A model generated the notes under the pieces. It made no database searches, was not told the DNA's origin, and saw only the letters and a list, made by a program, of their open reading frames with translations. Shown one piece after another: positions 1 through 17,613 of a DNA stretch of 17,613 nt; the stretch's first letter is position 1; the number at the start of each line of letters is the position of its first letter. Origin of the DNA: Jimgerdemannia flammicorona (Eukaryota); NCBI GenBank assembly GCA_003990765.1, contig RBNJ01002470.1, positions 1-17,613 on the forward strand, read 5' to 3'. The position numbers and the translations under genes are program-made.

Positions 1-162
1 TTGAAGGTCATTATCCGCAATTCTAGTAGAACCAGCTGATTCTTCAGTCCTATGGAAGCCATCTGCTAAATCCTGTTTATCAAGACATCACAGCCGACCA
101 TCCAAGAGGTAGACCAACTAGAAGATACCAACAGAGGACAAGGAGGCTTTGGAAGCACCAAT
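1..162 (+). pseudogene. C-terminal half of a trimeric dUTPase domain (motifs 4-5) in the retrotransposon polyprotein
   Basis: Frame 1 reads LKVIIRNSSRTS*FFSPMEAIC*ILFIKTSQPTIQEVDQLEDTNRGQGGFGSTN. RGQGGFGST (133-159) is dUTPase motif 5 (RGxxGFGST). AIC*IL matches motif 4 (RIAQL) with Gln CAA>TAA at 67-69. Another stop lies at 37-39. Not in the ORF track. Confidence 0.9.
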
Positions 163-195
163 AGAAATCTACAGACACCACCTATCGAGGTTCAT

Positions 196-534
196 TTGGC
201 AACAGTTGCTCAATTCCGACAAATGAGACCCCATATCTGCCGCCCAATCCGAGCAAGAGAAGACATCCTCCTGCAGCCCTACCAGCAAAAATGCCTAGAT
301 GTGCACCTACCAGTAGAAGCAAACAACTTGATATTTGCACCATCACTAGAGCTTCAAAAGGAATACCACATCCTTCTGGCTGAAGAACGAATTCATGACC
401 AGATGTCACCAATCCACATCTCTATCAGAAACTTGGGCTTCGAAGTGATAACTATCCCCAAGGGAACAACACTGGGATATTTCGAACCACTGATAGACAC
501 CTACGAGGAAGAAGTCTTCAAATTCTTGGGAAAC
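196..534 (+). pseudogene. Second, degenerate dUTPase-like (beta-clip) domain, in frame with the dUTPase and preceding RT
   Basis: Frame 1 is open from 70 to 582. The segments IRAREDILLQPYQQKCLDV and IHISIRNLGFEVITIPKGTTLGYF echo the dUTPase strand pattern (IxVxxxNxxxxxxxIxxGxxIAQ) but lack catalytic motifs. Confidence 0.5.
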
Positions 535-572
535 GGCAAGCCCTCTCTGGTGAGACTGATGGTACTAGGGAG
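528..572 (+). promoter_or_regulatory. Putative programmed -1 ribosomal frameshift signal (slippery heptamer plus stem-loop)
   Basis: G_GGA_AAC at 528-534 is in register with frame 1 (ttG GGA AAC), and -1 slippage enters frame 3, the RT frame. After an 8-nt spacer, CTCTCTGGTG (543-552) pairs with TACTAGGGAG (563-572) in 10 bp including 3 G-U pairs. Confidence 0.75.
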
Positions 573-2061
573 AAAGACTTAGCAAATTCAGCAATCAAAG
601 CCGTCGACATTGAGACAACTCTAACCAAGGACCAGCAACAACAAATACAGGAGTTGATAGAGGAGTACAAAGATATATTTACCACCACATACGATAACTT
701 CCCACCATATCAATATAGAGAACACCCTATATATACTAGAGATGCAAGACCAATCTGACAACGACCCTACCAAACACCACATCATCTGATTGAATTTGAA
801 CAACAACACATAGATGAAATACTACGAAATGGAGTCATCAGACCATCATCAAGCCCCTGGGCCTCACCAGCAATCATAGTACCAAAGAAAGGAGGATGGA
901 GATTAGTCATGGATTTCAGAAAACTCCACAAAGTCACCACAGAAGATGCCTACCCACTGCCAAGAATTGATGACCTCATCAATGCCCTTGGAAAAGCCAA
1001 ATACATGACCACTACTGACCAGTTCCAAGGATTCCAAGTAAACCCATTGCCAAAGAAGATATCTGCAAGATGGCCTTCATCACCAGACGAGGACAGTATG
1101 AATACCTACGAATGCCCTTTGGACTCTACAATGCACCCACCTCATTCCAACGAATGATGAACTATGTCTACCAGGACCTTATTGGAAGAAATGTACTAGT
1201 GTACATAGATGATGTCATCATCTACTCTGAGACATTCAAGCAGCATTTGCAAGATCTCCGTGAAGTATTTGATACCATTCGAAACTCAGGACTCAGACTC
1301 AATGCCAAGAAGTGCTTCTTCGGAAAACATCAAGTCGAATATCTGGGATATGTTGTCTCAGCTCAAGGAACACATGCTGACCCCCGCAAGGTGGAGAAAG
1401 TCAAGAACTACCCAACCCTGACCTCAGCAAAGGAGACCCTATCCTTCTTTATGCTGGCATCCTACTATCAATGATTCATCCCAAGGTTTTCGGATAAGGC
1501 AGTACCTCTCCAAGATATCTCCAAGAAGGACCAACCATTTTACTGGAAAAAGGAATAACAAAAGTCATTCGACCTACTCAAGAAGGCCCTACCGAAGCCC
1601 CTGTCCTGGTGCAACCAGACTTTGACAAACCATTCATCCTGATAATTGATGCCTCAGCCTTAGGACTTGGATCAATTCTGTTACAGCAAGATGACCAGAA
1701 AAGGGAGCATGTTATCGAATATGCTAGCAAGGCCACAAATGAAACTCAAGCGAACTATGGAGCCACTAAGTTGGAATGCCTAGCAGTAGTTTGGGCTGTG
1801 GACCACTTCTGACACTATCTCTTGGGAAAGAGATTCGCCCTCATCACTGACCATCAAGCTCTACAATGGTTGTTCAATAAGCCAGAGCCCTCAGGAATCT
1901 TTGCTAGATGGAACATGTCCCTGCAAGAATATCAGTTCACTATTGTCTACAAGAAAGGTGCTAAGAATTCCAATATCAATACCCTGTCAAGAATCCCACG
2001 AAACCAACAAGAAGGGAAGGAGCCCCCACAAGAGAAGGCTGCTTCCCACCCACCCAAATGA
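528..2061 (+). pseudogene. pol: Reverse transcriptase - RNase H (Ty3/Gypsy pol), disrupted
   Basis: GVIRPSSSPWASPAIIVPKK, RLVMDFRKL, DAYPLPRIDD, MPFGLYNAPTSFQR, YIDD (1202-1213), KCFFG, YLGY. RNase H: FILIIDASALGLG, IEYASK, LECLAVVWAV, ITDHQAL. Frameshifts near 1040 and 1590. Stops at 756, 1472, ~1556 and 1810; terminal TGA 2059-2061. Confidence 0.96.
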
Positions 2062-3278
2062 ACCAAGAATTGCGCCTCGCCCTCACCTGGAGCCTGCACC
2101 ATAGAAGCTTCAAGAAAGGAATTCAACCAGCCCACAAGTTGTTTATCCAAAGGAATTTCAAGAAATTCCAAGAAGGCAATGGCGAACTTTGGAGAGTAGA
2201 GGGAGAGCAGTACACCCAAGTTCCAAGAGAAGAAGAAATATTAAAGATCCTGACAATGAATCATGACCAAAATACACACCAAGGAATTGGTGCCACAATT
2301 GCAAGAATCAAGAAGCAATACTGGTGGCCCAAGATGAGAAAACAAATTTCAACACACATTCAACAATGTTATACCTACCAAAGATACTGACAAAAGCCTA
2401 CCAACAGAGCACCATTAATACCGATTGCAGCACCAGCTGGAGCCTTTCAAAGACTAGGAATAGACATTATTGGACCCCTACCAGTAACCAGCCGAGGAAG
2501 ACGCTACATCCTCACTATCGAAGACCACCTGACAAAATGGCCTGAAGCCTTTGCCATCGAGACTGCCGATGCCCAGACAATTATTGGGATCCTGTATGAT
2601 GAAATTTTCAGCTGCCATGGTGTGCCCAAGGAAATCATTACAGACCAAGGTCGAGAATTTATCAACTAAGCCATGAAGACCTTTGCGAGTAACTTCAAGA
2701 TCAAGCTATGACCAACAACAGCCTACCACCCACAGGCAAATGGACTCACTGAACAAATGAACCAGACCATCAAGCGAGGTCTCAGTAGAACCGGAGATCA
2801 ACTAAACTGGGATATCTATCTACCGGCAATTCTGTTCAGCATCTGTACCTCTAAGGTAACTGCTACCCAACAGACCCCCTTCTATTTGGTGTATGGCCGA
2901 GAAGCACAAGATCCTACTGAACCAGTCTAGCTAGATCTGTCAAAATGAGTCACAGAAGAGATCACCTGGTTACATGACATATGCCAGCAAGCACGAGGAT
3001 TTATTGCCAAGGCACAAGAATACCAAAAGAGGTACTATGACCACAAAGCCAACCTCAAACCCCTGCTCATTGGACAAAAGGTTCTGGTGTACCATACTAT
3101 CATAGAAGGAAATTGGAGTGCCAAGCTTGAACCAAAATGGGAAGGCCCCTATCTCATATACCAAGTATTCTCGAACCACACTTATCAACTCAAGACCTTG
3201 GATGGAGTTATACTCAAGACCAAGATACATCGCAACCGCATAAGACTCTACTACTCAAGAGAAGCAAAATGCATTTGA
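2058..3278 (+). pseudogene. Retrotransposon integrase (HHCC, DDE, GPY/F), no chromodomain seen; disrupted by stops
   Basis: One frame from ATG 2058: HDQNTHQG...YWWPKM...CYTY (second Cys>Tyr), GIDIIGPLP (D 2463), ITDQGREF (D 2643), YHPQANGLTE (E 2751; D-35-E spacing), TPFYLVYG, KLEPKWEGPY. Stops at 2388, 2667, 2709, 2928 and 2946. Confidence 0.95.
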
Positions 3279-3735
3279 ACAATCCTGTTCACTCTGTCTG
3301 TGTCATCTCCACTGGAGATATGACAGACATTTCACTCGGAACTCAAGAAAGCCAACAACATTGGAACCAGACTTAAGCCCATCCACGTGACAGACGTTGT
3401 TACTAAGAAATTGCCTTGGATTACAAGTAATACTATTTCCGATGGGTTCAAACCCCCAGCCACGACTATGGGAGCCCTTGCCCTAGACAAGGATGGCCAG
3501 TCTTCACAAATGCGCCAGCATTCCGCTTGTCCCTGGAGTTAAGACCACCCAACTCTGTGTAACCCTCACCGCCGAGGATGGCTCTAATTTTGCAAGGGGC
3601 AGATGTGATGTACACAATTGACAATAGAGTACCAGTGACTGCTAAGATCAGACAACATAACGGCATGACAATTAAATAGACAGCCTGACCCATTAGGTGA
3701 TCATCCCAAAAGAAGACAAGATGATCTGAGCCAAA

Positions 3736-4797
3736 ATGAAGACCATGTTATTTAAGAAACCATACTCTGCCTCAAGGATCGGCACCAAAGAACCAAGTAC
3801 TCACCACACAATGCCTCCCATTCACCAAACCAACCAGACCTCCCGCTGCTCTACCCCTTTACCTGGCCCAAAGACCCTGATCTTTGAAGCTATCAAGAAG
3901 GCCATCTGGTGCCCAGATACTTCCGAACACTTGAACTTCTATACTGAGGATCTTGGACACTTCATCAACTACCAGTATATAATGACCCAACAGCTCAAAG
4001 ACACTACTGAACAAATGACCCTCTGGTATGACTATGAAATTGGACACTGCCTTCGCAATGAGACTCAAGAAGGCGACCAGGAAGACCTCATTGCCAAAAT
4101 GTTAACCACCAGCCAGCTAATCAAGAGAGCCCTCCGTGTCCATCAAATCTTCTGCCATATTCCCTGGGCTATAGTACACTTGCAAGGAGTAATAGCTGGC
4201 AGCCTCTCCCACCTTTCAACTGAAGATGCTGACTGGATAGAATCTGAAGTAGCCAATGCTATTGGCAGCAACTGCATCACCGTAGGAAGCCAACAAACCG
4301 AACCTACTCAGCCAGGTTTCCACACCACCCCACTCCGAGACAACCATCAAGGTCACCTAATGAGTTTTATGGAGATATTTGAAGGACTGCCCATCACTAT
4401 AGAGGCACCCATTAGAGCTACCCCAACCACCCACCACCCTGTCAGCCACAATTCACACCTCATCATTTGGGAACCGAATCAAGAAGAAGCCCAAGAAGTT
4501 CCTGTCTTTGAAGAGGAGGCCCAAGAACTCCAAGACCCTGCCCCTGAAGAAACCCCCTCTGACACTGAAACTGACGAGCCTTCAGAAGAAGAAGAGGAGC
4601 AACAGAGAGTCTACCAGTCCTCTGTTCACATTCAAGCTGTTCAAGGGTTGGAGAATGTTGTTGAAGATGACTGGCCACTTTCCTACACTCTCACCTCTTG
4701 GCCGGCACTTCCCCCCTTTAAGGAGAGATATGATGAAGAAGAAATCACAACCCAGCAAGATTTGCCCACCACGGACGAAGGGTACTATTTCCTCTAG
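3736..4797 (+). CDS. Accessory ORF of the retrotransposon (env position), 353 aa, function unknown; alternative start ATG 3811
   Basis: Stop-free 353-codon ORF between integrase and the 3' LTR. It has a helical-looking core (LWYDYEIGHCLR...ALRVHQIFCHIPWAI...SLSHLS) and an acidic low-complexity C-terminus. No obvious signal peptide or transmembrane stretch. Confidence 0.7.
   Translation: MKTMLFKKPYSASRIGTKEPSTHHTMPPIHQTNQTSRCSTPLPGPKTLIFEAIKKAIWCPDTSEHLNFYTEDLGHFINYQYIMTQQLKDTTEQMTLWYDYEIGHCLRNETQEGDQEDLIAKMLTTSQLIKRALRVHQIFCHIPWAIVHLQGVIAGSLSHLSTEDADWIESEVANAIGSNCITVGSQQTEPTQPGFHTTPLRDNHQGHLMSFMEIFEGLPITIEAPIRATPTTHHPVSHNSHLIIWEPNQEEAQEVPVFEEEAQELQDPAPEETPSDTETDEPSEEEEEQQRVYQSSVHIQAVQGLENVVEDDWPLSYTLTSWPALPPFKERYDEEEITTQQDLPTTDEGYYFL
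4720..4728 (+). other. Candidate polypurine tract
   Basis: TTTT-AAGGAGAGA is directly followed by TATGAT, which could be a G>A/C>T-decayed TGTGRC LTR start complementary to the GCCACA end. Confidence 0.4.
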
Positions 4798-4830
4798 AGT
4801 ACCGCCCATCAGCCATGAGAACCCAGCTTT

Positions 4831-4991
4831 TGTCAGCAAGTCCGTTTCCAGCATTGCTACCCAGTACCACCATTTTCAGCATTTTGTCAGCAGGTCTGAA
4901 TCCAGCATTGCCACCCTCCACAACCACTTCTGGCAACAATCATCGTATCATGTCAGCTCATCCGAATCCAGTGTTGCTATCCCCTATAACC
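4831..4991 (+). repeat. Three imperfect 54-66 nt tandem units in putative U3
   Basis: Units start TGTCAGC at 4831, 4885 and 4951, each continuing TCYGWWTCCAGYRTTGCYAYCC. Confidence 0.85.
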
Positions 4992-5107
4992 CAATCCGTA
5001 GTAAAAAATAGCCTACACCTCGCATCATGCAAGCCAATAGCATAGCGAAGTTTGCCACAACGTAGTATACCTTAGCCTTAGTTGCGCCCCCTCCCCCATA
5101 GCTAGCA

Positions 5108-5153
5108 AACTTGTATAAATAACCCATATTCTTAGAGTGAATAAATCTCAGTC
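5108..5153 (+). promoter_or_regulatory. LTR core: TATA box, poly(A) signal and initiator-like TCAGT
   Basis: TATAAAT 5114-5120, a 13-nt spacer, AGAGTG, AATAAA 5140-5145 and TCAGT 5148-5152. The same module occurs at three other places in the window. Confidence 0.8.
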
Positions 5154-5353
5154 AGCTTGTGTTTAAAAAGTAAAAAGGATTACAAAGAAATCACTGCCTC
5201 CAAGAGACCGGATAAATTCTGAGAACAAGATAACAACCTAGAGCAACAGATCGCTCAGAAGTTTGAGTTAAAGAATTTTCTCTTGCTATGGAAAGAAAAC
5301 ATTACCCGACTGCTGCCATTTGAGACCCGAGACCCAGCCAAGGATTCAAGACC

Positions 5354-5414: not shown

Positions 5415-5904
5415 GAGATTCAAGACCCAGAAACCCAAGAATACCCAGCTAAAGGATACTAGACCACCAAAGACCGACCCACTGCCAAAGACCCGAATGA
5501 CTGCCAGGAACCTTTCAAGATTAACCAAGACGGATGAGCGAGCCATCAACCTCCATTTTCCCGACCTACTGCACCACAAGCTGCTTAAAGTCAAGACCAT
5601 CGCCCACTTCAAATCGACCGCATATTCCGCTAAAGTTTATCGCCGCCAGCACACCCAAGTAACCACCCTCTGTTAGCAACAACACCTTTTTCCACTGAAT
5701 ATTGAGCCACCATCGACATCCTGAGCCAATGAACAATCTCTCGCTAATTATCAATTATCGCATGAATCGAACGAGCCGATCATGTGACTATCAACCCGTA
5801 ACCATCACAAATGCATTCAGTTATCCATCGCGCACTTCACCAGTGGCACACATTGAGCCATGCAGTCGAAGTTCATTATACATAACTGATGCCACAATAT
5901 ATAT

Positions 5905-8891
5905 GAGAGGAGTAGTAGGTAAGTTGTGGTAATAAATAATCTAATAGTCTTTGAGAGGGTGGGGGTGGTGTATTTGGGTAGAGTAGGGTGAGATAGAGCT
6001 GAGTTGAGGCTACTGGTATAATATGAGGACCTTGTACTTATAATAGATTAGTTTATAAAGTGGTCTAGTATTCATGAAATATATATATATAATTAAGATT
6101 TTATTAAACTTATAGATAATTACCAAATTGGGGGAGACGACTGAAGATTAATATGGGTGAAAATAGAGATTAGAGAATTACAACAGATATTATGAGAAGA
6201 GGGGGAGGTATAGATGCAGAGTTTGGTGATACAGTCACATTGGCAGAGACTGGAGGAAGGGGAAAGACCTTCTAAGTATCTCACAAGGGCTCTTCAGGCA
6301 AAGAGAGTAAAGCAGAGATGAGAGAGAGTACTAGATTCTAATGGTCTGCTGGTATATAGTATATAAGACCTTCTTGGATCATTAAAGGAGAGATAGAGTG
6401 GTTTATAGAGTAAGGAAAAGGGTGGGGCTGATGCTGCCACCATTGACCATACTTTGGAGGATTGGTACTCAATATAAGCAGAAGGGCTGGGTGGTTTGGT
6501 GATGTCAGTATAGGAGGAGAAGATCTGTCAGGTTCTTGCCATAACTATACTGGACATGATGCCAAGAGAAGATGGTCTGTCCTGGGACTTCTGGAAGAAG
6601 ATGGTGAGTCTCTGGAGTACTGGGAGAGCTGATGGTGCTGTGTGACTTGATATTACAGTCAGAGAGATGGGTGGAGAGGCAGGATCTGGGGCTGGTTATA
6701 CTGTTTTATAAGAACAAAAGAAAGAGAGAGGACTGGAAGAACTGGCAGCCAATCATATTACTGGATATGGACAGAAAGTTAGTTACTAAGGTGGTGATTG
6801 CAAGGCTATAGAAGATGGCCTAGCAAGTCTTAGGTGTAGAGCAGTGGGGCTTTATAGGATATTGACTCATTAGGGATAGTATGGCTTAGATATATGGAGT
6901 TATTAAAGGAGTATGAGCCTGTGGACTAGATAGGCAACTGGTCATCCTGGATCAGGAGAAGATATATGACTGAGTTCAGTGAGTCTGGTTGGCAAAGATA
7001 TTGGATAGGATTGGTATATCTCACTAGTTCCAGTTAGTGATGGTCAGCCTACTGGAAGAGAGTAGGGCTGTACTCATGTGCAATGAATATAAAGAGGTGA
7101 TATTCCCCCTAGGTAGGAGTGTGTCCCAGGGGGATCCACTGTCCCCCATTCTGTATGCTCTTTCCCTAGAGCCTTTGATGGATAGTTAGGTAGAAGATAG
7201 TTGGGCTCTCAGTTTTTGGAATTGGGTGGAAAGTTGGAGCCTTTGTAGATAATATAGTAGTTAGCCTAGAATTGATTGCTGATATCAAGGAGCTCAAGAA
7301 GACAGTTAAGTAGTATGAGATATACTCTGGGGCTAAACTCAATTAGTATAAGTGTGAAATGATGATATTAGGTAATAGCTGGGTGAGAGGGGATGTCATT
7401 GGAACAATTGTCTCTGCTGAAGAGATAGTGTAGTACTTGGATATCTATCTATCAGTATATGGGTCAGTCCTATTAAGACCTTGGTGAGAGCAGAGAGTTG
7501 CAATCTGGAGGGAGGCCCTATGGAGTTGGAGAGGATACCACTTGTCTCTGATGGAGTATGTTTCGATTTTGAATATCTACTGGTTACTGAAGCTGTAGTA
7601 TTTGGCTTATCATCTGGACTTCTCAGCCTGAGTGGTGAAGAAACTGATAAAACTGATCAAAGAGTGGATCTGGACTGAGAGAAGGAGTTAGATAAGTTGG
7701 GAGGTCTTGTCTTTACCAGTGGCTAGAGGGGGCCTTGGACTGGTTGATTTTCCAAAGAGGCTGTACTATCTGAGAACATGGTGGCTGAAGAGAGTGGTAG
7801 AGTTGAGAGGGGATAGCTGGGTTCCTCTGATGTAGAAGGTCTGGGAGATGAGATCCTCACTAAGAGACTCTATAGGAGATCTACTATCCTTAGTTAAGCT
7901 TCAGAATAATGAGCATATGTAGTATAAAGACTTCTGGTGGGAGGTAGCAGATGGGGTACACTGCATTGGAATTTGCTAGTAGAGAAATAAAGAGAAGGTA
8001 CCTTGGGACCCAGTGATGTAGAGATGAAACTAAATATTATTAGAGGGGCATTTCCTTAGTTGATTTTAATATTAGTGATGAGATCGAGTGCCTGAGGGGG
8101 CCAGAACAGGATCTATGGCTCAGTGGATGGCAGCTGACAGATATTAGAGAGAAGTGGGACTGAAATGGAGTTTGGGCCTAGAGTGCTGAGGTAAGGTAGT
8201 AAATGCTGCCAAAGTACTGGGTGATCTAGTGGTATATGCTGCAGAGAAATATCATACTCAACTTCTACTTGGGACACCTTGTTGAGGGAAAAAGCTTCAA
8301 CTGTGAGAAGTACCACAATGTAGGATAGAAAGGGAGATTTGTACAGATGCTAGAATATTGACTAGGAGAGTACAAGATACTTAGTGACTTTTGGCTAGCA
8401 GTTGGAGATTAATTAGCTATTATATATAGGAGGAATGGTGAGCAGGGTCAGTGGGAGGATTTGAGAGATAGATTGGTGGGGGGGGGTGAGAAAGGAATGA
8501 CTTACTTTAGATTGAGTATTGGTAGTTTGAATACGGCTGGCAGATCACTAGTTGTTTTTTTCAAGAAAGAGAGGAGCATGGGTTTGAGGGTGTGGCTGTT
8601 GAGATGGCAAGGACTAATGGAGGACATTATAATGAGCCGGTGGCTTGATTGGGGTTTGCAGGATAGTCAGAGGTATTGCTTAGTAGAGAAAATCTATAGG
8701 TAGAGTGAGAGAAGAGTTGGAGTAGTGAGTGGTAAAGTAGTCTTCAAATGTAAAAGTATAAGAGAGAGCTCCCTTATGGGGATTGAGTAGTGGGAGGTAA
8801 TACTGTAACTATATCAATAGACTGGTAATAAATGGCAAAGTCTGAGTAACTTTAAAAAATAAAAATAAAAATAAAAAATAAAATAAAATAA
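5905..8891 (+). mobile_element. Degenerate non-LTR retrotransposon (L1/Tx1-like LINE ORF2: RT and C-terminal region), 5' part missing
   Basis: Hand translation: EEGERPSKY (6253), EDGLSWDFWKK, KNWQPIILLDMDRK (6740), EQWGF, LDQEKIYD*V (6950), SQGDPLSPILYALSLEPL (7127), AFVDN for FADD (7242), SGAKLN*YKC, LPVARGGLGLVD (~7713-7748). Riddled with TAG/TGA/TAA. AATAAA at 8827 and an A-rich tail. The left boundary is approximate. Confidence 0.92.
8854..8891 (+). repeat. A-rich (TAAAA/TAAAAA)n tail of the LINE
   Basis: aaaaaataaaaataaaaataaaaaataaaataaaataa, about 20 nt after AATAAA. Confidence 0.8.

Positions 8892-9223: not shown

Positions 9224-9253
<30 letters not shown>
9224..9253. repeat. Poly(T), 30 nt
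   Basis: Uninterrupted T run. Confidence 0.95.
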
Positions 9254-9254
<1 letters not shown>

Positions 9255-9260
9255 AGAGCA

Positions 9261-9488
9261 CTAGTTAATATACTTCAGTGATTGATAATTAGTGATGACA
9301 TTAAACTTAATTTCTTCTAGATAATATCTCCTAATTAATAGCTCTTTCTTATATATTGCTAACTTCTGTTCAGCTGGTAATAACTTATATAACTCAAAGA
9401 CAATAGGGTGGGGTCCTTTACCATCATCTTGGGAAATGACAGCACTAATTGCAAAGGTGGACACTCCAGTGGTAACTGCGAATTTTAG
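9261..9488 (-). pseudogene. Isolated Ty3/Gypsy RNase H fragment (different family from element 1)
   Basis: LKFAVTTGVSTFAISAVISQDDGKGPHPIVFELYKLLPAEQKLAIYKKELL-RRYYL...FNVITNYQSLKY matches the decayed pattern TDASxFAIGAVLSQ...HPxAFESRKLxPAE...EKELLA...WRHYL...TDHxSLKY, with a short internal deletion. Confidence 0.9.
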
Positions 9489-10178: not shown

Positions 10179-11392
10179 TTATACAATTGGTTTCCTCCCG
10201 TATGCGTATGGCATATTCATATAAGTTTTAGTTTTCGTCATCTTCTGCAATATGTTTACATAGAGATCAGTGTACCCGTCGTCGTCTAGTCCCAACTTTG
10301 GCATTACCATTGGTCTGCACACCTTTTTCATTATTGCGCCGACGCGACCTTTCCAGCCCATTGGAGCCGACACGTAGTACTCGTCTTCGTCAAGTCTCAA
10401 CTTTGGCACTAGCGCCGGTCTGAACATCTCCCAAAAGTTCGTGGCACAGGTTTTCATTATTGTGCCAACGCGACCGTTCCAGCCAATGGGAGCCGACACG
10501 TAGTCCGAGGAAATGTCCTCGAATCCCTGGGCGGCAAGGAGTTTGGGTAAACTGTGCACCATGTCCTCGTCTACACCGCGGGCGAGGAGAAGGTCGCTGA
10601 CTACGAAAGGTTTGGAAATAAGGATTATCGAAATGTTCAGTAGGTTGTTTGAAGCACCGTCAATGAGGAAAGACAAGAGTGTCTCGCAGACCGGACGATA
10701 CACAACATCAAATAACTTACCCGCGTTCGATAACAATTCGTACTCTGGTGGCGACTGATTCAGTTTCACGACCCCTTCAAAAAGCTCCACCCACCCACCC
10801 GACTTAGTGACCCTCATTAGCTCCTTCACTGCCACCTCCCACTCGCTTGGTGAAAATGCGGCCCACATGAAGCGCTGGAACACGTAATCGAAGGTGCAGT
10901 CGTCAAAGGGCAGACCCGCGAGTATGTTCGCCTTGACAAAGGTCAGGTTAGATGGGACGTTGACTGTTGGAAAGATACCGGAAATGTCGACGCCGACGAA
11001 GTTGGAATTCAGAAAATCCTCAGCCATGTCGAGACACCATCTCCCGGAACCGCAGCCGACGTCAAGCACGGTGATACCACTCTCAAGGTCGTCCTCCACG
11101 GGGGCGCTGAAGTTGCCATGCATCAGGTAGCTATTGAAGTGAGATGGAAAACGTAAGGAGGGGTTTGATCCATGGTAACAATCTACCGAACGCTACCTCT
11201 CCCAACTGACCGTTCCGCCCGTTCGTACCGAATAACGTAATGCTGATAGTCCAAGCGGACCATTTCACTGTCGTCGATACTCGGCAACACATATTTTGTG
11301 TTGGCGCTGGGCATGTACTTGCGTTTACGAAGGGTTCTGTATCCATCCGGGATAGAGAAGGACTGCGAGGCGGTATCATTGATGGTGTCCAT
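10179..11392 (-). CDS. Class I SAM-dependent methyltransferase, fungal LaeA-like type; exons 11392-11229, 11130-10721, 10600-10179; 331 aa
   Basis: ACCATGG start; YVLPSIDDSEMVRLDYQHYVIR|YLMHGNFSAPV; motif I VLDVGCGSGRW; FVGVDIS; GLPFDDCTFDYVFQR; ELMRVTKSGGWVELFE; AYGRKP C-terminus. The spliced length of 996 nt keeps frame through both GT-AG introns. Confidence 0.92.
10272..10502 (-). repeat. Diverged in-frame tandem duplication in exon 3 (126 nt + 105 nt)
   Basis: YVSAPIGWNGRVGTIMKTCATNFWEMFRPALVPKLRLDEDEY (10502-10377) is followed by YVSAPMGWKGRVGAIMKKVCRPMVMPKLGLDDDGY (10376-10272). Confidence 0.95.
10601..10720 (-). other. Intron 2 of the methyltransferase (120 nt, in frame, stop-free)
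   Basis: GTAAGT donor and CCTTTCGTAG acceptor; removes a 40-aa non-family-like insert seen in the 314-aa ORF. Confidence 0.85.
11131..11228 (-). other. Intron 1 of the methyltransferase (98 nt)
   Basis: GTACGA...pyrimidine tract...CAATAG; splicing joins CG|C (Arg) and restores QHYVIRYLMHGNF. Confidence 0.88.
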
Positions 11393-11705
11393 GGTGTAAG
11401 CGAAGAAGACGGCGTGTTACCTAAGCCCCAACCTACTTAAGGGTTTAAAACTTTTAATGATCCAAAACTATATTAGGCACGTCGTCATGTTATTCTTCCG
11501 ACAATAGTAACCAGAAACACCTTCCCTGAAATTATAAAGGGTGGCTAAGCATACTTTATCCGATTGCGAATTTCCTTTCCGAAATCACAAAGCCCACGAG
11601 TATGGTTTAGTCACACCCTCATAGGGGTGGCGTCTTTTATCTCATTATTCTCATTATGTATTGATAGATTAAGTGCCTTCATTAGTATTATTTCTATTTA
11701 TATAT

Positions 11706-12013
11706 TGTGAAATGTGATGACTTGCTAAAAAAAATTAGACTGAGGTTTATTTACTCTGGTCACTGTGGTTATTATATAAGTTGTACTAAGTTATAGCGTG
11801 ATAAACTTCACTGAGTCAGACTAACTAATAGAGATAAGAATAAAGCTAGTATATAGTAGATTGATAGTACAGTCTAACAAATCTATAAATTTTTGTTAAC
11901 TTGAATATATAGAATATAAAAACAAAATATATATTAAAAACTAATTCTGTAGAATGATTCTCTGCTTGATTTACTATAACTTGACAAGTTAGACTTTTTA
12001 TTTAATATATACA
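11706..12013 (-). mobile_element. Putative short solo LTR (308 bp) of the same lineage, decayed
   Basis: Plus strand reads TATAT[TGTGA...ATACA]TATAT (possible 5-bp TSD). The minus strand carries AACTTATATAAT-N13-AGAGTAAATAAACCTCAGTC (11782-11738). The TATA lies 237 nt from the proposed start, versus 240 nt in LTR 2. Confidence 0.55.
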
Positions 12014-12347
12014 TATATATCTATAAGTTTAAAAAAAAATAAAAATAAAAATATTATATTAAGTCAAAATTTAATTTAAGTTATATATATCTTAAAAAGA
12101 AAATTACTATATAAATTTTATAATAGTATATATTATCAATAGTTTAATTATTATTAAAAAATATATCAATATATTTTGATAATATATCTATAGATTTAGG
12201 ATTTAGTAGTAGTTATACTATTTAGTTATATAGTATAATTTATAGATTTATCTAACTATAGTAATTAATAAGAATAAAGCTAATATTAATAAAAATAAAA
12301 TTAGTATATTTATTAAGTAATAATAATAGAGATAAAAACTAACTAAA

Positions 12348-12465
<118 letters not shown>

Positions 12466-12923
12466 AATTAAATAAATAAGTATAAGACTGAAATTTAGCT
12501 AGACTAATATAATAAATTATTATACTTAATAAGTAATATTATTAAAAGCTAAACTATATTATTATAACTAATAGATAATAAGAATAAATCTATTAGTTAA
12601 CTAAATGTAAATTAAATATATTTACTAATATTAATAAAGATATTATAATATAATATAATATAATAAATATATATAAAATCTAAATAGTATAACAGATTTC
12701 TTTATCTTAAATACTTGATCTTCAGAGTTCTCAGAATGTAGAGATAGGTGAGTTCAAAGTATATTTGTCTATAGGCTTATTAGTTCTTTTGCTTCTTTAC
12801 TTTGAACTATTTTGATCTGAGATTTATTTACTCTAGATACTAGAGATATTTATATAAGTATGCTAGTTATATTGTAGCTAAGCATAAGTTATATTATAAC
12901 TATTAAATTTATATATCTTTGTT

Positions 12924-13190
12924 GAAATTTCTAATATTTTGATATTTGAATAATATGGTAATTTTTTATAACTATATTATTTTAGAGCTATATTGTTTAA
13001 TATATAAAAATATAAGAAATTGATAATAATAAATAATATTCTTCTTTTCTGTAAAAATTTCTATTATTTTAACATCTTGATAATATAGCTTAGAAATATT
13101 ATTCTTTGTAACTATAATATCTTTAAGTTATATTACTCAATATATAAAAATATAAATAATTAATAATAAATAATACCTTTTTTCTCCCTA
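12924..13190. repeat. Two imperfect 130-140 nt tandem units (putative U3 duplication of the relic LTR)
   Basis: AAATTTCTA.TATTTT...TAATAT...TAACTATA...TATATT...AATATATAAAAATATAA...TAATAATAAATAATA occurs from ~12924 and again from ~13054. Confidence 0.8.
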
Positions 13191-14402
13191 CTATATATTT
13201 CCAACTTATTTATAATAAAGATTATGAGCCCTAGTTAGTAGCTAATAAGAAATATCTCTCTAAGACTATATACTACTCTATATTAAGATGTTGCAACTGA
13301 TAAATTAAGGAGTTAATATGAGTATATCAGCTACAGCAAATATAGATACCTCTGAAATAGATATAATAGTTATAGTCTTTATAGTAAGTATAAATATAGT
13401 TAAGAGGTTGATTCCAATCTTTGATAATAAGAATTATATTATTTGAATATTCTATATAAGTAATTTTCTAGAGAAGTATGGATTGGTAGAGTTTATGAAA
13501 CTATAAGTATAGATTTAAGATTATAATACTATAAATAATTATTGAGCATTATGAGAGATTGTATTCATATTATTGAACTAGTAAATAAAGTATAATATAT
13601 ACTATAATAGCTTATAATAAATAAGAGACTCTATATAATTATCATATATAAGTATTCTTATCAAATCAATTTTATCTAAAATCTCAGTAATTTAATCTAT
13701 AAATGAAATCTAAGAAAAGTATCTATAAATATACTAATTATATCAATAAACTGGTAAATCAGTTAAATTTTCTAAGTATATTAATAAAGTATATCAGTGA
13801 TAAAGATGAGGTTTTGGCCCTTATAAAAGATCTTTTCAAAATATAAAATATTATTGTATAACTATATATAGGAGTGAGAAACTTATAAACTATATCTATA
13901 TAATAACAAGCCTTATTAATAAAGAGATATATCAAGGAAATAGTAATAATGATGATAATGAGAAAGTATTCTATAGATTATATAAATAAGATAAGAAATA
14001 TCAATAAGATCAGAAATATAAGTCTATCAAATTTAATAGAAACTACCATTAGTATAGTAAGTATAAATGTATATATAGAGAGCAACTACCATTATAAGAA
14101 TAAAAAGAACAGCATTGATAATATGAAAGTGGCAGAAAGAAATATAATGGCAAAGAGTAATATAATATAAATACTATCAAAACTAATAATAATTAGAATA
14201 GAGACATAGTCTATATATAAGTAATACATACTGAGTATCTAAAGAAGACATTTATATTGTGACAAACCAAGACGTACTATCTGAATCATATCTTTACCAG
14301 ATGATGCGAACAAGATGACATGAACACTCAGCTTAGTAACCAGCAACTATTTGCTGTGGAAACTGTATAAATAGCCAGACATACCAGAAAGGGTCTGTTT
14401 AC

Positions 14403-14438: not shown

Positions 14439-14491
14439 CCTGCCATAAGTAGCAGATCTATAGTTAGCCACATAGTAACTAGATAGCAACC

Positions 14492-14538
14492 AACTTGTAT
14501 AAATTACCCCAGAGGCGAGAGTGAATAAAACCTCAGTC
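14492..14538 (+). promoter_or_regulatory. LTR core: TATA box, poly(A) signal and TCAGT
   Basis: TATAAAT 14498-14504, a 13-nt spacer, AGAGTG, AATAAA 14524-14529 and CCTCAGTC. A second AACTGTATAAATA lies upstream at 14361. Confidence 0.8.
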
Positions 14539-14649: not shown

Positions 14650-15230
14650 CTTGCCAGATAAGCCTGAAGATTTGCCACCTAAGTTCAAGAAGAACTTCGC
14701 CACCTTTGAAGAGAAGCCCTTGGTTCGCTTGCCAGATAAGCCTGAAGATTTCCGCCTTTTCTGCCACTTAAAGGAAAGCCGCCTTGCTCAAGCCAGTTTC
14801 TGATGCAACTTCACAGTGATTCGTCATGCAAACGAAGCCAGTCTTTGATGTAACTTTGCCAAGAGACCCTTTTCCAAAGAACGCCACCAGTTTTATTTGC
14901 CATATTCCCAGTTAGAGCCGCCAATTCAGGAAGAATCCGCGCCATTATATTTCCAGAAGAAGCCATCTGAGTTATTTCCCAGAAGCCCGCCAATTCAGAA
15001 GAATCTGCACCATCCGAGTTATTTCCCAGAAGCCCGCTGATTCAGGAGAATCCGCGCCACCTGCCGTTTTCGAGTTATCTGCATTCCCAGAAAACCCACG
15101 CCATCCAAGTAGTATTCCCAGTTGAAGCCGAAACCACGACATCCGAGTTATTCATTATTCCCAGTGAGCCTAGGAAGAATCCGCGCCATATATTCCCAGA
15201 GAGCCAAATCGAGTCACCTGCCAGAAATCG
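14650..15230 (+). repeat. Repeat arrays in the long U5 of LTR 2
   Basis: Exact 24-mer CTTGCCAGATAAGCCTGAAGATTT at 14650 and 14728. An imperfect array of TTCCCAG / GAATCCGCGCCA / CCGAGTTAT modules spans ~14900-15230. Confidence 0.85.
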
Positions 15231-15609: not shown

Positions 15610-16156
15610 GATTTCAAAATCGACGTGACTTTTCAGCTCACAAGAACCCACAGTCAAACTGGATACATTTGATACAACACCAATCTCTGCCACTACAGGA
15701 GAACCAGTCATCACTAGCATTTGGACAGGAAGAGAAGTAATCACCTCAAGACTTGCCAACTATCCAGCATCAGAAGGATCCCAACCAGAAGCAGGAGGCA
15801 GTATAGCCCGAAATCCCCAACCAGATCAACCAGACCAACCAGACAATACAGACAGCCCTGCTAGAGTTTTTGGAGAACTTGCACAAGAACTAGACGAATT
15901 TATTACCCAGACCCAACATCTTATAGCCAGACAGCATACACCAGCCCCACCAATCTCACCAATAGAACCCCTACCACAACCTCTTGCAGGACAAGAAGTA
16001 GCTCCCACAAGGATACCTAGGCCTATTCCACCTCACCCAAGGACCAAAACACCATCTTCAAGATACCCAAGCACCCCTATCTCTAGTGACAGTTCAGAAA
16101 GCAAATCAGAATCAGAATCTGAACCTGAACCAGAATCAGAAGAAAGTGACGAAGAA

Positions 16157-17613
16157 ATGGCCACCTCATTGCCAATCTTTGCAGGATACCCAGAAGAGGA
16201 CCCCAGAGAATTCCTTGATGGAATCGAAGGAATCGCAGCCTTGAGGAATCTCTCAGATGAAAGGAAAATCACCATCTACAAAGCTCAGCTCAGAGAACCA
16301 GCCAGAGGGATTTTCCATCGAACAGCAAACAACCCAGATTCGGAACTAGCAAGACAGATACAAGCAGCAATCTCCTATGAGCTAGAATATCAGGCCATGG
16401 TCTACTGGCTCATAGAAAAGTATGCAGGAAATGAAACCCGCCACAAGGCCCAGGAATCTATCATGGGAATGAAGATGAATCTTGGAGAATCACCCAGAGC
16501 CTTCTTCACAAGAATCCAGAAGAGGATGCACTCTGCTGGATTCAATGCCACCAACCAAGACATCATAGGTCCAATGACCTTCATGAATGGGATTCCTCCG
16601 AATATTGCCCAGCATGTCCGCACTCTAGGCATCAGAAGGTCTGAAGAGCAAGTAGATGCAGCCCAAGGATTCTTTGATATCAAGCAAGGAACTACCTGGA
16701 GTGACCATGACAAGAAGGAAGATAAAGAAGATATCCTGGTCAAAGCCCTACAGGGACTCCTTCAAGGATAAGACAGGTCTGAAGAAAGAAGGCCAGCCAA
16801 GGAAGGAAAGAAGGACAGAAGTGAAATTCAAGACCTCAGCTCCAAGTTAGACCGATTGGTTGGGCAGATTGAAAAACTCACCACACGTGAAAATCGGGAC
16901 TACCAAAACAACAGAGGATACCCACCACAGAGGAGCCAAGGTTACCCACCCAGAGATAACCAGAATTACCAGCAAGAAGAAAGAAGGTACCCTGCCCGAG
17001 ACAGAGCCCAAGTCCAATGCTTCCACTGTGGACAATTTGGACACTATGCCACTGAATGTGACAACAAAAGAAGTGACCGAAGGGACTCAGAACCACCAAA
17101 CTGAAGGAATGACACCCAGTACAAGAAAACTGAAGTCCATCCTGTTGAAGATTTCGAGGAGGCAAGCAACAGTGAAGACTACAGCGACCTAGATTTGTAC
17201 CCTACCAAGGTTACCACCCAAAAGACAGTCTACCCAGCAGAAAAAAGAAAGAGACCTGTGGGAAGACCATCCAGGAATATTAGCAGGAGAATTATTCAAG
17301 AAGAAGATGAAGAACATGAGGAGGAACAAGCTGAAACACCTCCCCGAACCCCTTCACCTTTTGTGCCCGAGACAAACGAGTTACCACCAGAAGATGAAGA
17401 AATGGAACAAGAAGAACGGGAACCTGCTGCTCCAAAGTCTAAGAAGAAGTACACCCCGAAAACCATGCCTAGGGATATTTACAATGAAGCCTGGCAGAAG
17501 ATTCAAGAAGCCAAGATGGAAGTTCCTCTCCTGCAGTTCTTGCAATTGACACCAGCTGGAGTCCGAAACAAATTGCTGAGAACCACCAGGTCTAGCACTG
17601 GCCGAGTTCCAAT
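16157..17613 (+). pseudogene. gag: Gag (capsid-like domain, CCHC zinc knuckle) continuing in frame toward the protease; disrupted by two stops
   Basis: LPIFAGYPEEDPREFL, QLREPARGIF, MNLGESPRAFFTRI, FMNGIP; CFHCGQFGHYATEC (17018-17059). The same frame runs through TAA 16769 and TGA 17102 to the window end, ending MEVPLLQFLQLTP (pre-protease-like). The frame is also open upstream to 15629. Confidence 0.9.

Follow-up and report, generated by a model that had tools for sequence, protein, structure and literature searches.

In the standard picture of long terminal repeat (LTR) retroelements, integrase (IN) is made and packaged within Gag-Pol, and to our knowledge no LTR retrotransposon has an IN that enters the particle without ever having been fused to Gag. 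The element considered here occupies positions 1 to 4797 of a 17,613-nucleotide (nt) stretch of Jimgerdemannia flammicorona DNA (contig RBNJ01002470.1, forward strand), which is referred to below as the window. As judged from its coding frames, this region represents a decayed Ty3/Gypsy LTR retrotransposon of the fungal type, of which it covers the 3′ two-thirds, and it probably stems (we put the probability at roughly 0.6) from a diversified lineage whose Pol is not one polyprotein.

In betaretroviruses such as mouse mammary tumor virus (MMTV) and Mason-Pfizer monkey virus (MPMV), dUTPase lies in the protease (PR)-bearing frame, two −1 frameshifts are used, and IN is fused to reverse transcriptase (RT). 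The arrangement proposed for the window shares with them the dUTPase in the PR-bearing frame and the presence of two recoding events, but at its second event translation would stop and then start anew. In foamy viruses, the whole of Pol is translated from a spliced mRNA; the lineage with a split IN would resemble them in having a Pol component that is made apart from Gag and reaches the particle without Gag fusion, although here only IN is separate. Gammaretroviruses suppress a stop codon between gag and pol.

Among fungal Gypsy elements, a dUTPase between PR and RT has been described for PosPlaTy3-5 of Postia placenta, for Phanerochaete, and for Tmt1 of Tuber, as have additional open reading frames (ORFs) in such elements (PMC2864245), and the bdelloid elements Juno, Vesta, and TelKA likewise carry dUTPase between PR and RT (PMC5408684). 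This position is common to PosPlaTy3-5/Tmt1/Juno-type elements and the window, and some of the former also have an extra ORF of unassigned function. The available sections of these two papers give the pol order as PR-RT-RNase H (RH)-IN, whereas in the lineage of the window IN has its own start codon. Termination-reinitiation has been described for caliciviruses, influenza B, and the non-LTR retrotransposon SART1 (UAAUG; PMC10275272), and reinitiation at UAAUG for the fungal hypovirus CHV1 (PMC2699510). These systems and the window have in common that, at the end of a long ORF, stop and start coincide in part or are only a short distance apart (AUGA, UAAUG), with RNA structure nearby; the differences are that the hairpin in the window is not conserved in its relatives and that we found no such use reported for an LTR retrotransposon or an integrase. 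Tj1 of Schizosaccharomyces japonicus employs stop-codon suppression between gag and pol (PMC5911963). An in-frame stop that would be read through to the polymerase is shared by Tj1, gammaretroviruses, and five relatives of the window element (TGA-CTA), but the stop of the relatives follows PR rather than gag, and the family of the window has a frame change instead.

An LTR retrotransposon with a separately initiated integrase was not found in a full-text literature search whose coverage excluded subscription journals and Repbase, and the split-IN lineage, which is large, is apparently undescribed. The initial annotation had not recognized the combination of features as described for an LTR retrotransposon; this holds for the split integrase within that search, but dUTPase and extra ORFs have already been published for Gypsy elements.

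Integrase as a separate ORF in related loci

When the IN frame of the window was compared with 1.84 billion representative proteins, 85,026 matches were obtained; among the best 150, the top identities (up to 49%) belonged to stand-alone proteins of 394 to 453 amino acids (aa). All 14 stand-alone proteins that were aligned have Met in column 1 and are colinear with the window IN, with the consensus MNxxxYxxLxxYL. Almost all stand-alone IN proteins come from metagenomes; the records of P0085 and P0098 give Paraglomus occultum and P. brasilianum (Glomeromycota) as their sources. In public records, stand-alone IN ORFs of the lineage carry the label "transposase InsO" or are assigned to an archaeal bin: two members of the P0126 cluster are filed in NCBI under a Nitrososphaeraceae archaeon bin (as integrase and hypothetical protein), probably because a eukaryotic retroelement contig was binned with the archaeon.

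A scan of metagenome contigs yielded 80 related loci (L numbers below). A locus was classified as split if its IN ORF, counted from the first in-frame ATG, began at most 45 nt from predicted residue 1. By this definition, 39 loci were split, 10 doubtful, and 13 fused, 12 were cut by a contig end, and 6 had IN before RT. L080 was probably misclassified as split, and dropping it leaves 38; L060 and L061 are duplicates, and with L061 dropped 12 fused loci remain. The start column holds Met in 38 of the 39 split loci and in the window, compared with 1 of 12 fused loci, and the split loci share the start motif M[DEN]xxxYxxLxxYL. In 23 of 38 split loci, the IN ORF is complete and reaches a length of 400 aa or more, and pairs with a synonymous divergence (dS) below 1.5 gave nonsynonymous-to-synonymous ratios (dN/dS) of 0.13 to 0.29 (Nei-Gojobori method); the IN ORF of split loci is under purifying selection. 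In an IN tree of 67 rows computed by a quick method, a clade of 39 rows with a support of 96 in the SH-like approximate likelihood ratio test (SH-aLRT) lacks fused loci altogether; 29 of its rows are split, 6 are doubtful, and 4 are cut. At a support of 97, the window groups with the split loci L001 and L013, the cut locus L004, and the fused L075. Taken at the level of sequence, the split integrase is strongly supported as an old, lineage-wide, and selected trait.

On the IN tree, the loci with IN upstream of RT-RH (L055, L065, L066, L067, L072, and L079) branch together as the outgroup. In L005, L007, and L023, the upstream ORF carries approximately 270 to 300 extra residues after RNase H and before the IN cistron (for example, L007:4270-5163), for which no Pfam match was found.

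Start of the integrase ORF

In the window, the ATG at 2058 is the first one in the IN frame, which is open from 1965, and it overlaps the stop codon of RT-RH (Table 1). The hairpin preceding it was matched in stability by none of 200 shuffled sequences (z = −3.41); the AUGA overlap with an upstream hairpin, as initially annotated, is present. Neither the window nor L001, L007, or L023 gave an Rfam match at E ≤ 1.

Stop-to-ATG offsets were available for the 27 of 38 split loci in which an upstream ORF was in view and measured 90 aa or more. They amount to −11, −11, −5, −1, −1, +2, and +5 in seven loci, where −1 corresponds to ATGA (L001 and L011) and +2 to TAATG (L010). Another 16 loci have offsets between 27 and 113 nt, and the remaining 4 have offsets between 166 and 730 nt; across loci, IN occurs in all three frames relative to the upstream ORF. 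The 15 spacers of 24 to 110 nt (L027 being omitted as a duplicate of L023) total 1000 nt and contain 2 ATGs, both in L005, versus 12.3 expected from shuffled sequences, a deficit with a Poisson P of about 4e-4 in which independence is overstated, as the loci are related. The spacers of L040 and L018 (163 and 190 nt) have no ATG, and the long spacers of L017 and L042 have the expected number.

These comparisons are consistent with IN being a separate cistron whose conserved Met corresponds to the first AUG from the upstream stop codon onward. Ribosomes ending RT-RH synthesis would resume and reinitiate at the IN AUG, with stop and start overlapping as AUGA in the window, L001, and L011; a first-AUG rule of this kind would fit ribosomes that terminate and then resume. 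Of the two parts of the earlier proposal, separate initiation of IN is thus strongly supported by the relatives, while the AUGA stop-restart mechanism agrees with the comparisons as a suggested explanation.

A competing and, in our view, unlikely explanation is that IN is separately initiated from an mRNA of its own, arising by splicing or from an internal promoter, or by internal ribosome entry. Spacers of up to 113 nt that are A-rich and G-poor would suit it, as would the precedent of the spliced Pol mRNA of foamy viruses and a structured RNA abutting the AUG in one subclade. This element of about 45 nt ends 3 to 13 nt ahead of the IN ATG, except in L005, where the distance is greater, and consists of GUGAAAGC-NAAAGUG, a hairpin, and an outer helix; 7 of its 13 predicted pairs show compensatory changes. 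Its covariance model recovered 14 loci at E < 1e-13, i.e., the 12 loci used for building plus L019 and L027, and had no match in the window; the RNA itself has no Rfam match. Reinitiation is favored by the starts lying −11 to +5 nt from the stop in seven loci and the window, which is typical of coupling, and AUG-free spacers fit resumed scanning, though a short 5′ leader would fit them as well.

Access to RT-RNase H

Five of the 22 loci examined carry one in-frame stop, a TGA with CTA directly behind it, 96 to 213 nt upstream of RT and after a same-frame gag-PR ORF of 289 to 1031 aa. A UGA-CUA context favors readthrough, and its placement after the protease looks like programmed readthrough. 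In L026, the sequence T_TTA_AAA occurs at the transition from gag to PR-RT-RH. By the reading frames of these relatives, recoding to reach RT-RH is common in the lineage, and RT-RH would be reached from Gag-PR in this way on several branches, with UGA-CUA readthrough in the five relatives.

In the family of the window, RT-RH would be reached by a −1 shift at G_GGA_AAC (528 to 534) after the dUTPase-bearing ORF. The heptamer falls within the overlap of frames 1 and 3 (399 to 582) and is one of four in-register heptamers of this type across the 1449 codons of the element. Since the first ATG of RT-RH frame 3, which is open from 399, occurs only at 909 to 911, inside RT, this frame has no usable start of its own. 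Because recoding ahead of RT-RH is common in the lineage, we consider the −1 shift plausible and moderately supported. The slippery site with a stem noted initially thus stands as far as the heptamer is in register, but not for the stem (see below), and RT-RH synthesis by frameshift draws on the heptamer, the late ATG, and recoding in five relatives.

For comparison with other copies, contigs from four public runs were mapped on positions 1 to 5200 at a likeness of at least 80%, yielding 821 (run X1), 67, 64, and 26 contigs. An extra base is present behind 1041 in X1, X2, and X5 (one contig each, representing all depth there) and behind 1589 in X1 and X2. As other copies hold one more base at these sites, the window copy has two private frame breaks, one near 1040 and one near 1590. 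Among the indels listed from the mapped contigs, none lies in 530 to 600 or in 1965 to 2070, and gap-free contigs cross the two junctions (358 to 601 and 1991 to 2331 in X2, 1979 to 2269 in X5). The two breaks that the initial annotation had proposed to compare among copies, at approximately 530 to 582 and at 2058, are thus free of listed indels; those at 1041 and 1589 are copy specific. An X3 contig covering 1590 to 2214 has a single gap, at 1825. GGGAAAG at 1824 to 1830 is a second in-register heptamer, located in the RNase H frame, in a region (1790 to 2104) over which frame 2 stays open; one X3 contig is without the base at 1825.

Several observations weigh against the reading of a Pol divided by both a −1 shift and a stop-restart. 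At the dUTPase/RT junction, an in-register XXXYYYZ heptamer arises by chance in 14 to 21% of shuffled overlap zones, and the stem downstream of the heptamer is equaled in stability by 103 of 200 shuffles (z = 0.04). L001, the sole relative with dUTPase in view, is continuous across this junction: gag, PR, dUTPase (111 bits), RT, and RH share a single 1577-aa frame, followed by an ATGA-overlapped IN. L011 has the −1 layout as well, with no canonical heptamer. The copy comparison addresses indels among those listed, in contigs that lose rare variants and cover 523 to 696 sparsely, and the bases of heptamer, ATG, and TGA lie outside it. Every family copy seen is decayed, and the protein collection contained no long intact ORF of the window family: a near-length search with frame 1 (70 to 579) returned one protein, and a search for longer proteins returned none. 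At the IN junction, the hairpin has no counterpart in 7 relatives. On the IN tree, the fused L075 stands beside the window on a branch of length 2.91, and the tree as a whole has long branches and requires 5 split/fused changes.

Because L001 is unbroken, the −1 break is neither ancestral to the dUTPase-bearing group nor lineage-wide. It is therefore conceivable, but on balance doubtful, that the IN split is real while the break at approximately 530 to 582 was a defect fixed early in the family, whose ancestor was as continuous as L001, and that the family then spread nonautonomously or died out. The unremarkable stem, a heptamer possibly due to chance, and the lack of an intact long ORF among the proteins found would agree with this; in opposition to it, the bridging copies share the break, the copies are many (821 X1 contigs), and relatives recode at the same junction.

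In the pol frames of the window copy, TGA accounts for 7 of the 11 in-frame stops, and the observed/expected CpG ratio is 0.32 to 0.46 in the elements versus 1.13 around the host methyltransferase gene. Some stops are private to this copy (position 37 is C in X1, X3, and X5; position 1556 is C in X1 and X2), and the copy is decayed, mostly via CpG transitions. The stops, the two private 1-nt losses, and the CpG depletion are what could be expected if all four frame changes were random decay and the intact element had one ordinary Pol frame. This is highly improbable, since the mapped copies show indel differences at 1041 and 1589 and, among those listed, none at the two junctions, and the IN split with its conserved Met in 39 of 80 loci, under purifying selection, largely refutes it for the IN junction. 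A second ribosomal frameshift joining RH and IN into a normal RT-RH-IN protein, to which the −1 frame of IN in the window, L001, L010, L011, and L013 might point, is very unlikely given that 1965 to 2061 has no in-register heptamer, that the overlap in L011 is only 7 nt, that IN uses all three relative frames with IN-frame stops after the upstream stop in many loci, and that conservation of the Met is confined to split loci.

If Pol is divided as we favor, graded amounts would be expected, with Gag-PR-dUTPase exceeding RT-RH and RT-RH exceeding IN. More tentatively, at a level of belief just short of even, we envisage a widespread and old Ty3/Gypsy lineage of soil fungi, including arbuscular-mycorrhizal fungi, that makes a three-tier Pol from one RNA: Gag-PR first, RT-RH by readthrough or −1 shift, and IN by reinitiation, aided by structured RNA in one subclade. 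Integrase would then need to enter the particle without any Gag fusion, and a free-standing IN under purifying selection raises the questions of its route into the particle and of the control of its dose. The lineage would also be a source of many natural fungal stop-restart, readthrough, and frameshift signals.

Domains and layout of the element

Searches with Pfam profiles in the three forward frames, with stops written as X, gave a Gypsy-type order on the plus strand: RVT_1 in two pieces (879 to 1061 in frame 3 and 1076 to 1354 in frame 2), RT_RNaseH (1618 to 1932, frame 1), Integrase_H2C2, and rve. A chromodomain, which chromoviruses carry at the C terminus of integrase, gave no match at E ≤ 0.01 in the forward frames. 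The coordinates of all features are collected in Table 1.

Table 1. Features of the Ty3/Gypsy element in the window and corresponding signals in related loci
Feature	Position	Strand	Remarks
dUTPase, C-terminal third	1..162	+	Frame 1; Pfam PF00692 at ~4-162, 22.8 bits (cut-off 22)
Post-dUTPase stretch, fold unassigned	163..582	+	Frame 1, open 70..582, ends with TAG 580-582
RT-RNase H frame	399..2061	+	Frame 3 to ~1040, frame 2 to ~1590, frame 1 to TGA 2059-2061
Candidate −1 slippery heptamer G_GGA_AAC	528..534	+	In register with frame 1
Stem-loop	543..572	+	8 nt 3′ of heptamer; −13.7 kcal/mol; without statistical support
Hairpin	2014..2047	+	10 nt upstream of IN ATG; −18.7 kcal/mol
ATGA, putative IN start over RT-RH stop	2058..2061	+	ATG 2058-2060, TGA 2059-2061
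Integrase (IN) ORF	2058..3278	+	Frame 3; Integrase_H2C2 2229-2387, rve 2445-2732; 5 in-frame stops
ORF-X (extra ORF)	3730..4797	+	355 codons open; probable start ATG 3811 (MPP...), stop TAG 4795-4797
LTR core, 54 nt	5098..5151	+	TATAAATA + AATAAA; TATA/poly(A) core
TGA-CTA in relatives	L002:902, L009:3290, L017:870, L071:1585, L042:3358		
Subclade RNA	L003, L005, L007, L008, L015, L016, L018, L019, L023, L027, L028, L029, L049, L073		

The dUTPase motifs claimed for the 5′ end were borne out: RGQGGFGSTN is encoded at 133 to 162 in frame 1, within a stretch interrupted by in-frame stops at 37 to 39 and 67 to 69, and a full dUTPase domain (108 bits) is present in the family copies P0151 and P0162, two metagenome ORFs that are 83 to 85% identical to the window. 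P0162 keeps frame 1 past the dUTPase to about nt 345. A dUTPase directly upstream of RT was seen in the family of the window and in L001. The post-dUTPase stretch of frame 1 has no Pfam match; a second dUTPase-like barrel at nt ~250 to 500 was considered and rejected (BLASTP E = 20, no Pfam match). A scan of viral contigs with P0162 gave no match.

Gag and PR of the window element lie beyond the window edge. A zinc knuckle and a protease are found upstream in L001 (zf-CCHC and gag-asp_proteas), and a second element in the window has zf-CCHC at 20.4 bits. The gag of element 2, reported initially to read in one frame, does so in frame 2 at 15629 to 17611, but with two in-frame stops inside. Self-comparison of the window by blastn, tblastn, and purine/pyrimidine-coded blastn revealed no further copies, only the 54-nt LTR core.

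ORF-X and LTR

By its homologues, ORF-X is real at the family level: P0167 (325 aa), P0217 (324 aa), and P0221 (331 aa) are 75 to 77% identical to it with the same start and end, and all indels among them are in frame. P0219, of the ORF-X cluster, is on a contig of 19,434 nt that agrees in length and source with the contig of P0151 and is probably identical to it. ORF-X has no Pfam family and no Atlas neighbor, and the ORFs that follow IN in relatives did not resemble it at E ≤ 1e-3. The window ORF-X has Cys at four places where four other copies have Arg, and because of these replacements it is taken to be decayed as well. The intact extra ORF of the initial annotation is hence open over its full length and has family-level homologues, but in this copy it carries decay changes. 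Its intactness was rejected as a sign of selection, the P value being only ~0.04 (hand calculation) and the Arg-to-Cys decay being present.

The LTR core recurs at 14480 to 14538 (+) and 12817 to 12870 (−), and loose contig ends of other copies lie at 5097 and 5151. The 5′ LTR is beyond the window edge, and self-comparison did not find the LTR boundaries. X1 depth rises about threefold from ~3300 onward, with most of the 821 X1 contigs on the 3′ part; to judge from this rise, ORF-X may sit inside a long LTR. Within what are presumed to be LTR regions, short tandem repeats occur at 4828 to 4991 (element 1) and 14963 to 15056 (element 2).

Remainder of the window

The region from 5900 to 8800 is G-rich (GC skew about +0.4), with a CpG observed/expected ratio of 0.05 and no Pfam match in any frame. 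The segment at 11500 to 14300 has a GC content of 13 to 25% and includes an A run of ~120 nt (about 12345 to 12465) and the inverted LTR-core remnant at 12817 to 12870. Its indices are those of repeat-induced point mutation (RIP; TpA/ApT of 1.14, (CpA+TpG)/(ApC+GpT) of 0.79), but no claim of RIP is made, as plain AT-richness could account for them. An RT_RNaseH remnant (36.3 bits) lies within AT-rich DNA at ~9236 to 9482 (−). The methyltransferase ORF at 10179 to 11192 (−) is intact, with 337 codons, a Methyltransf_25 match of 56.9 bits, and normal CpG content, and it contains a 54-nt direct repeat with a spacing of 126 nt (10325 to 10378 and 10451 to 10504) whose two units are 91% identical.

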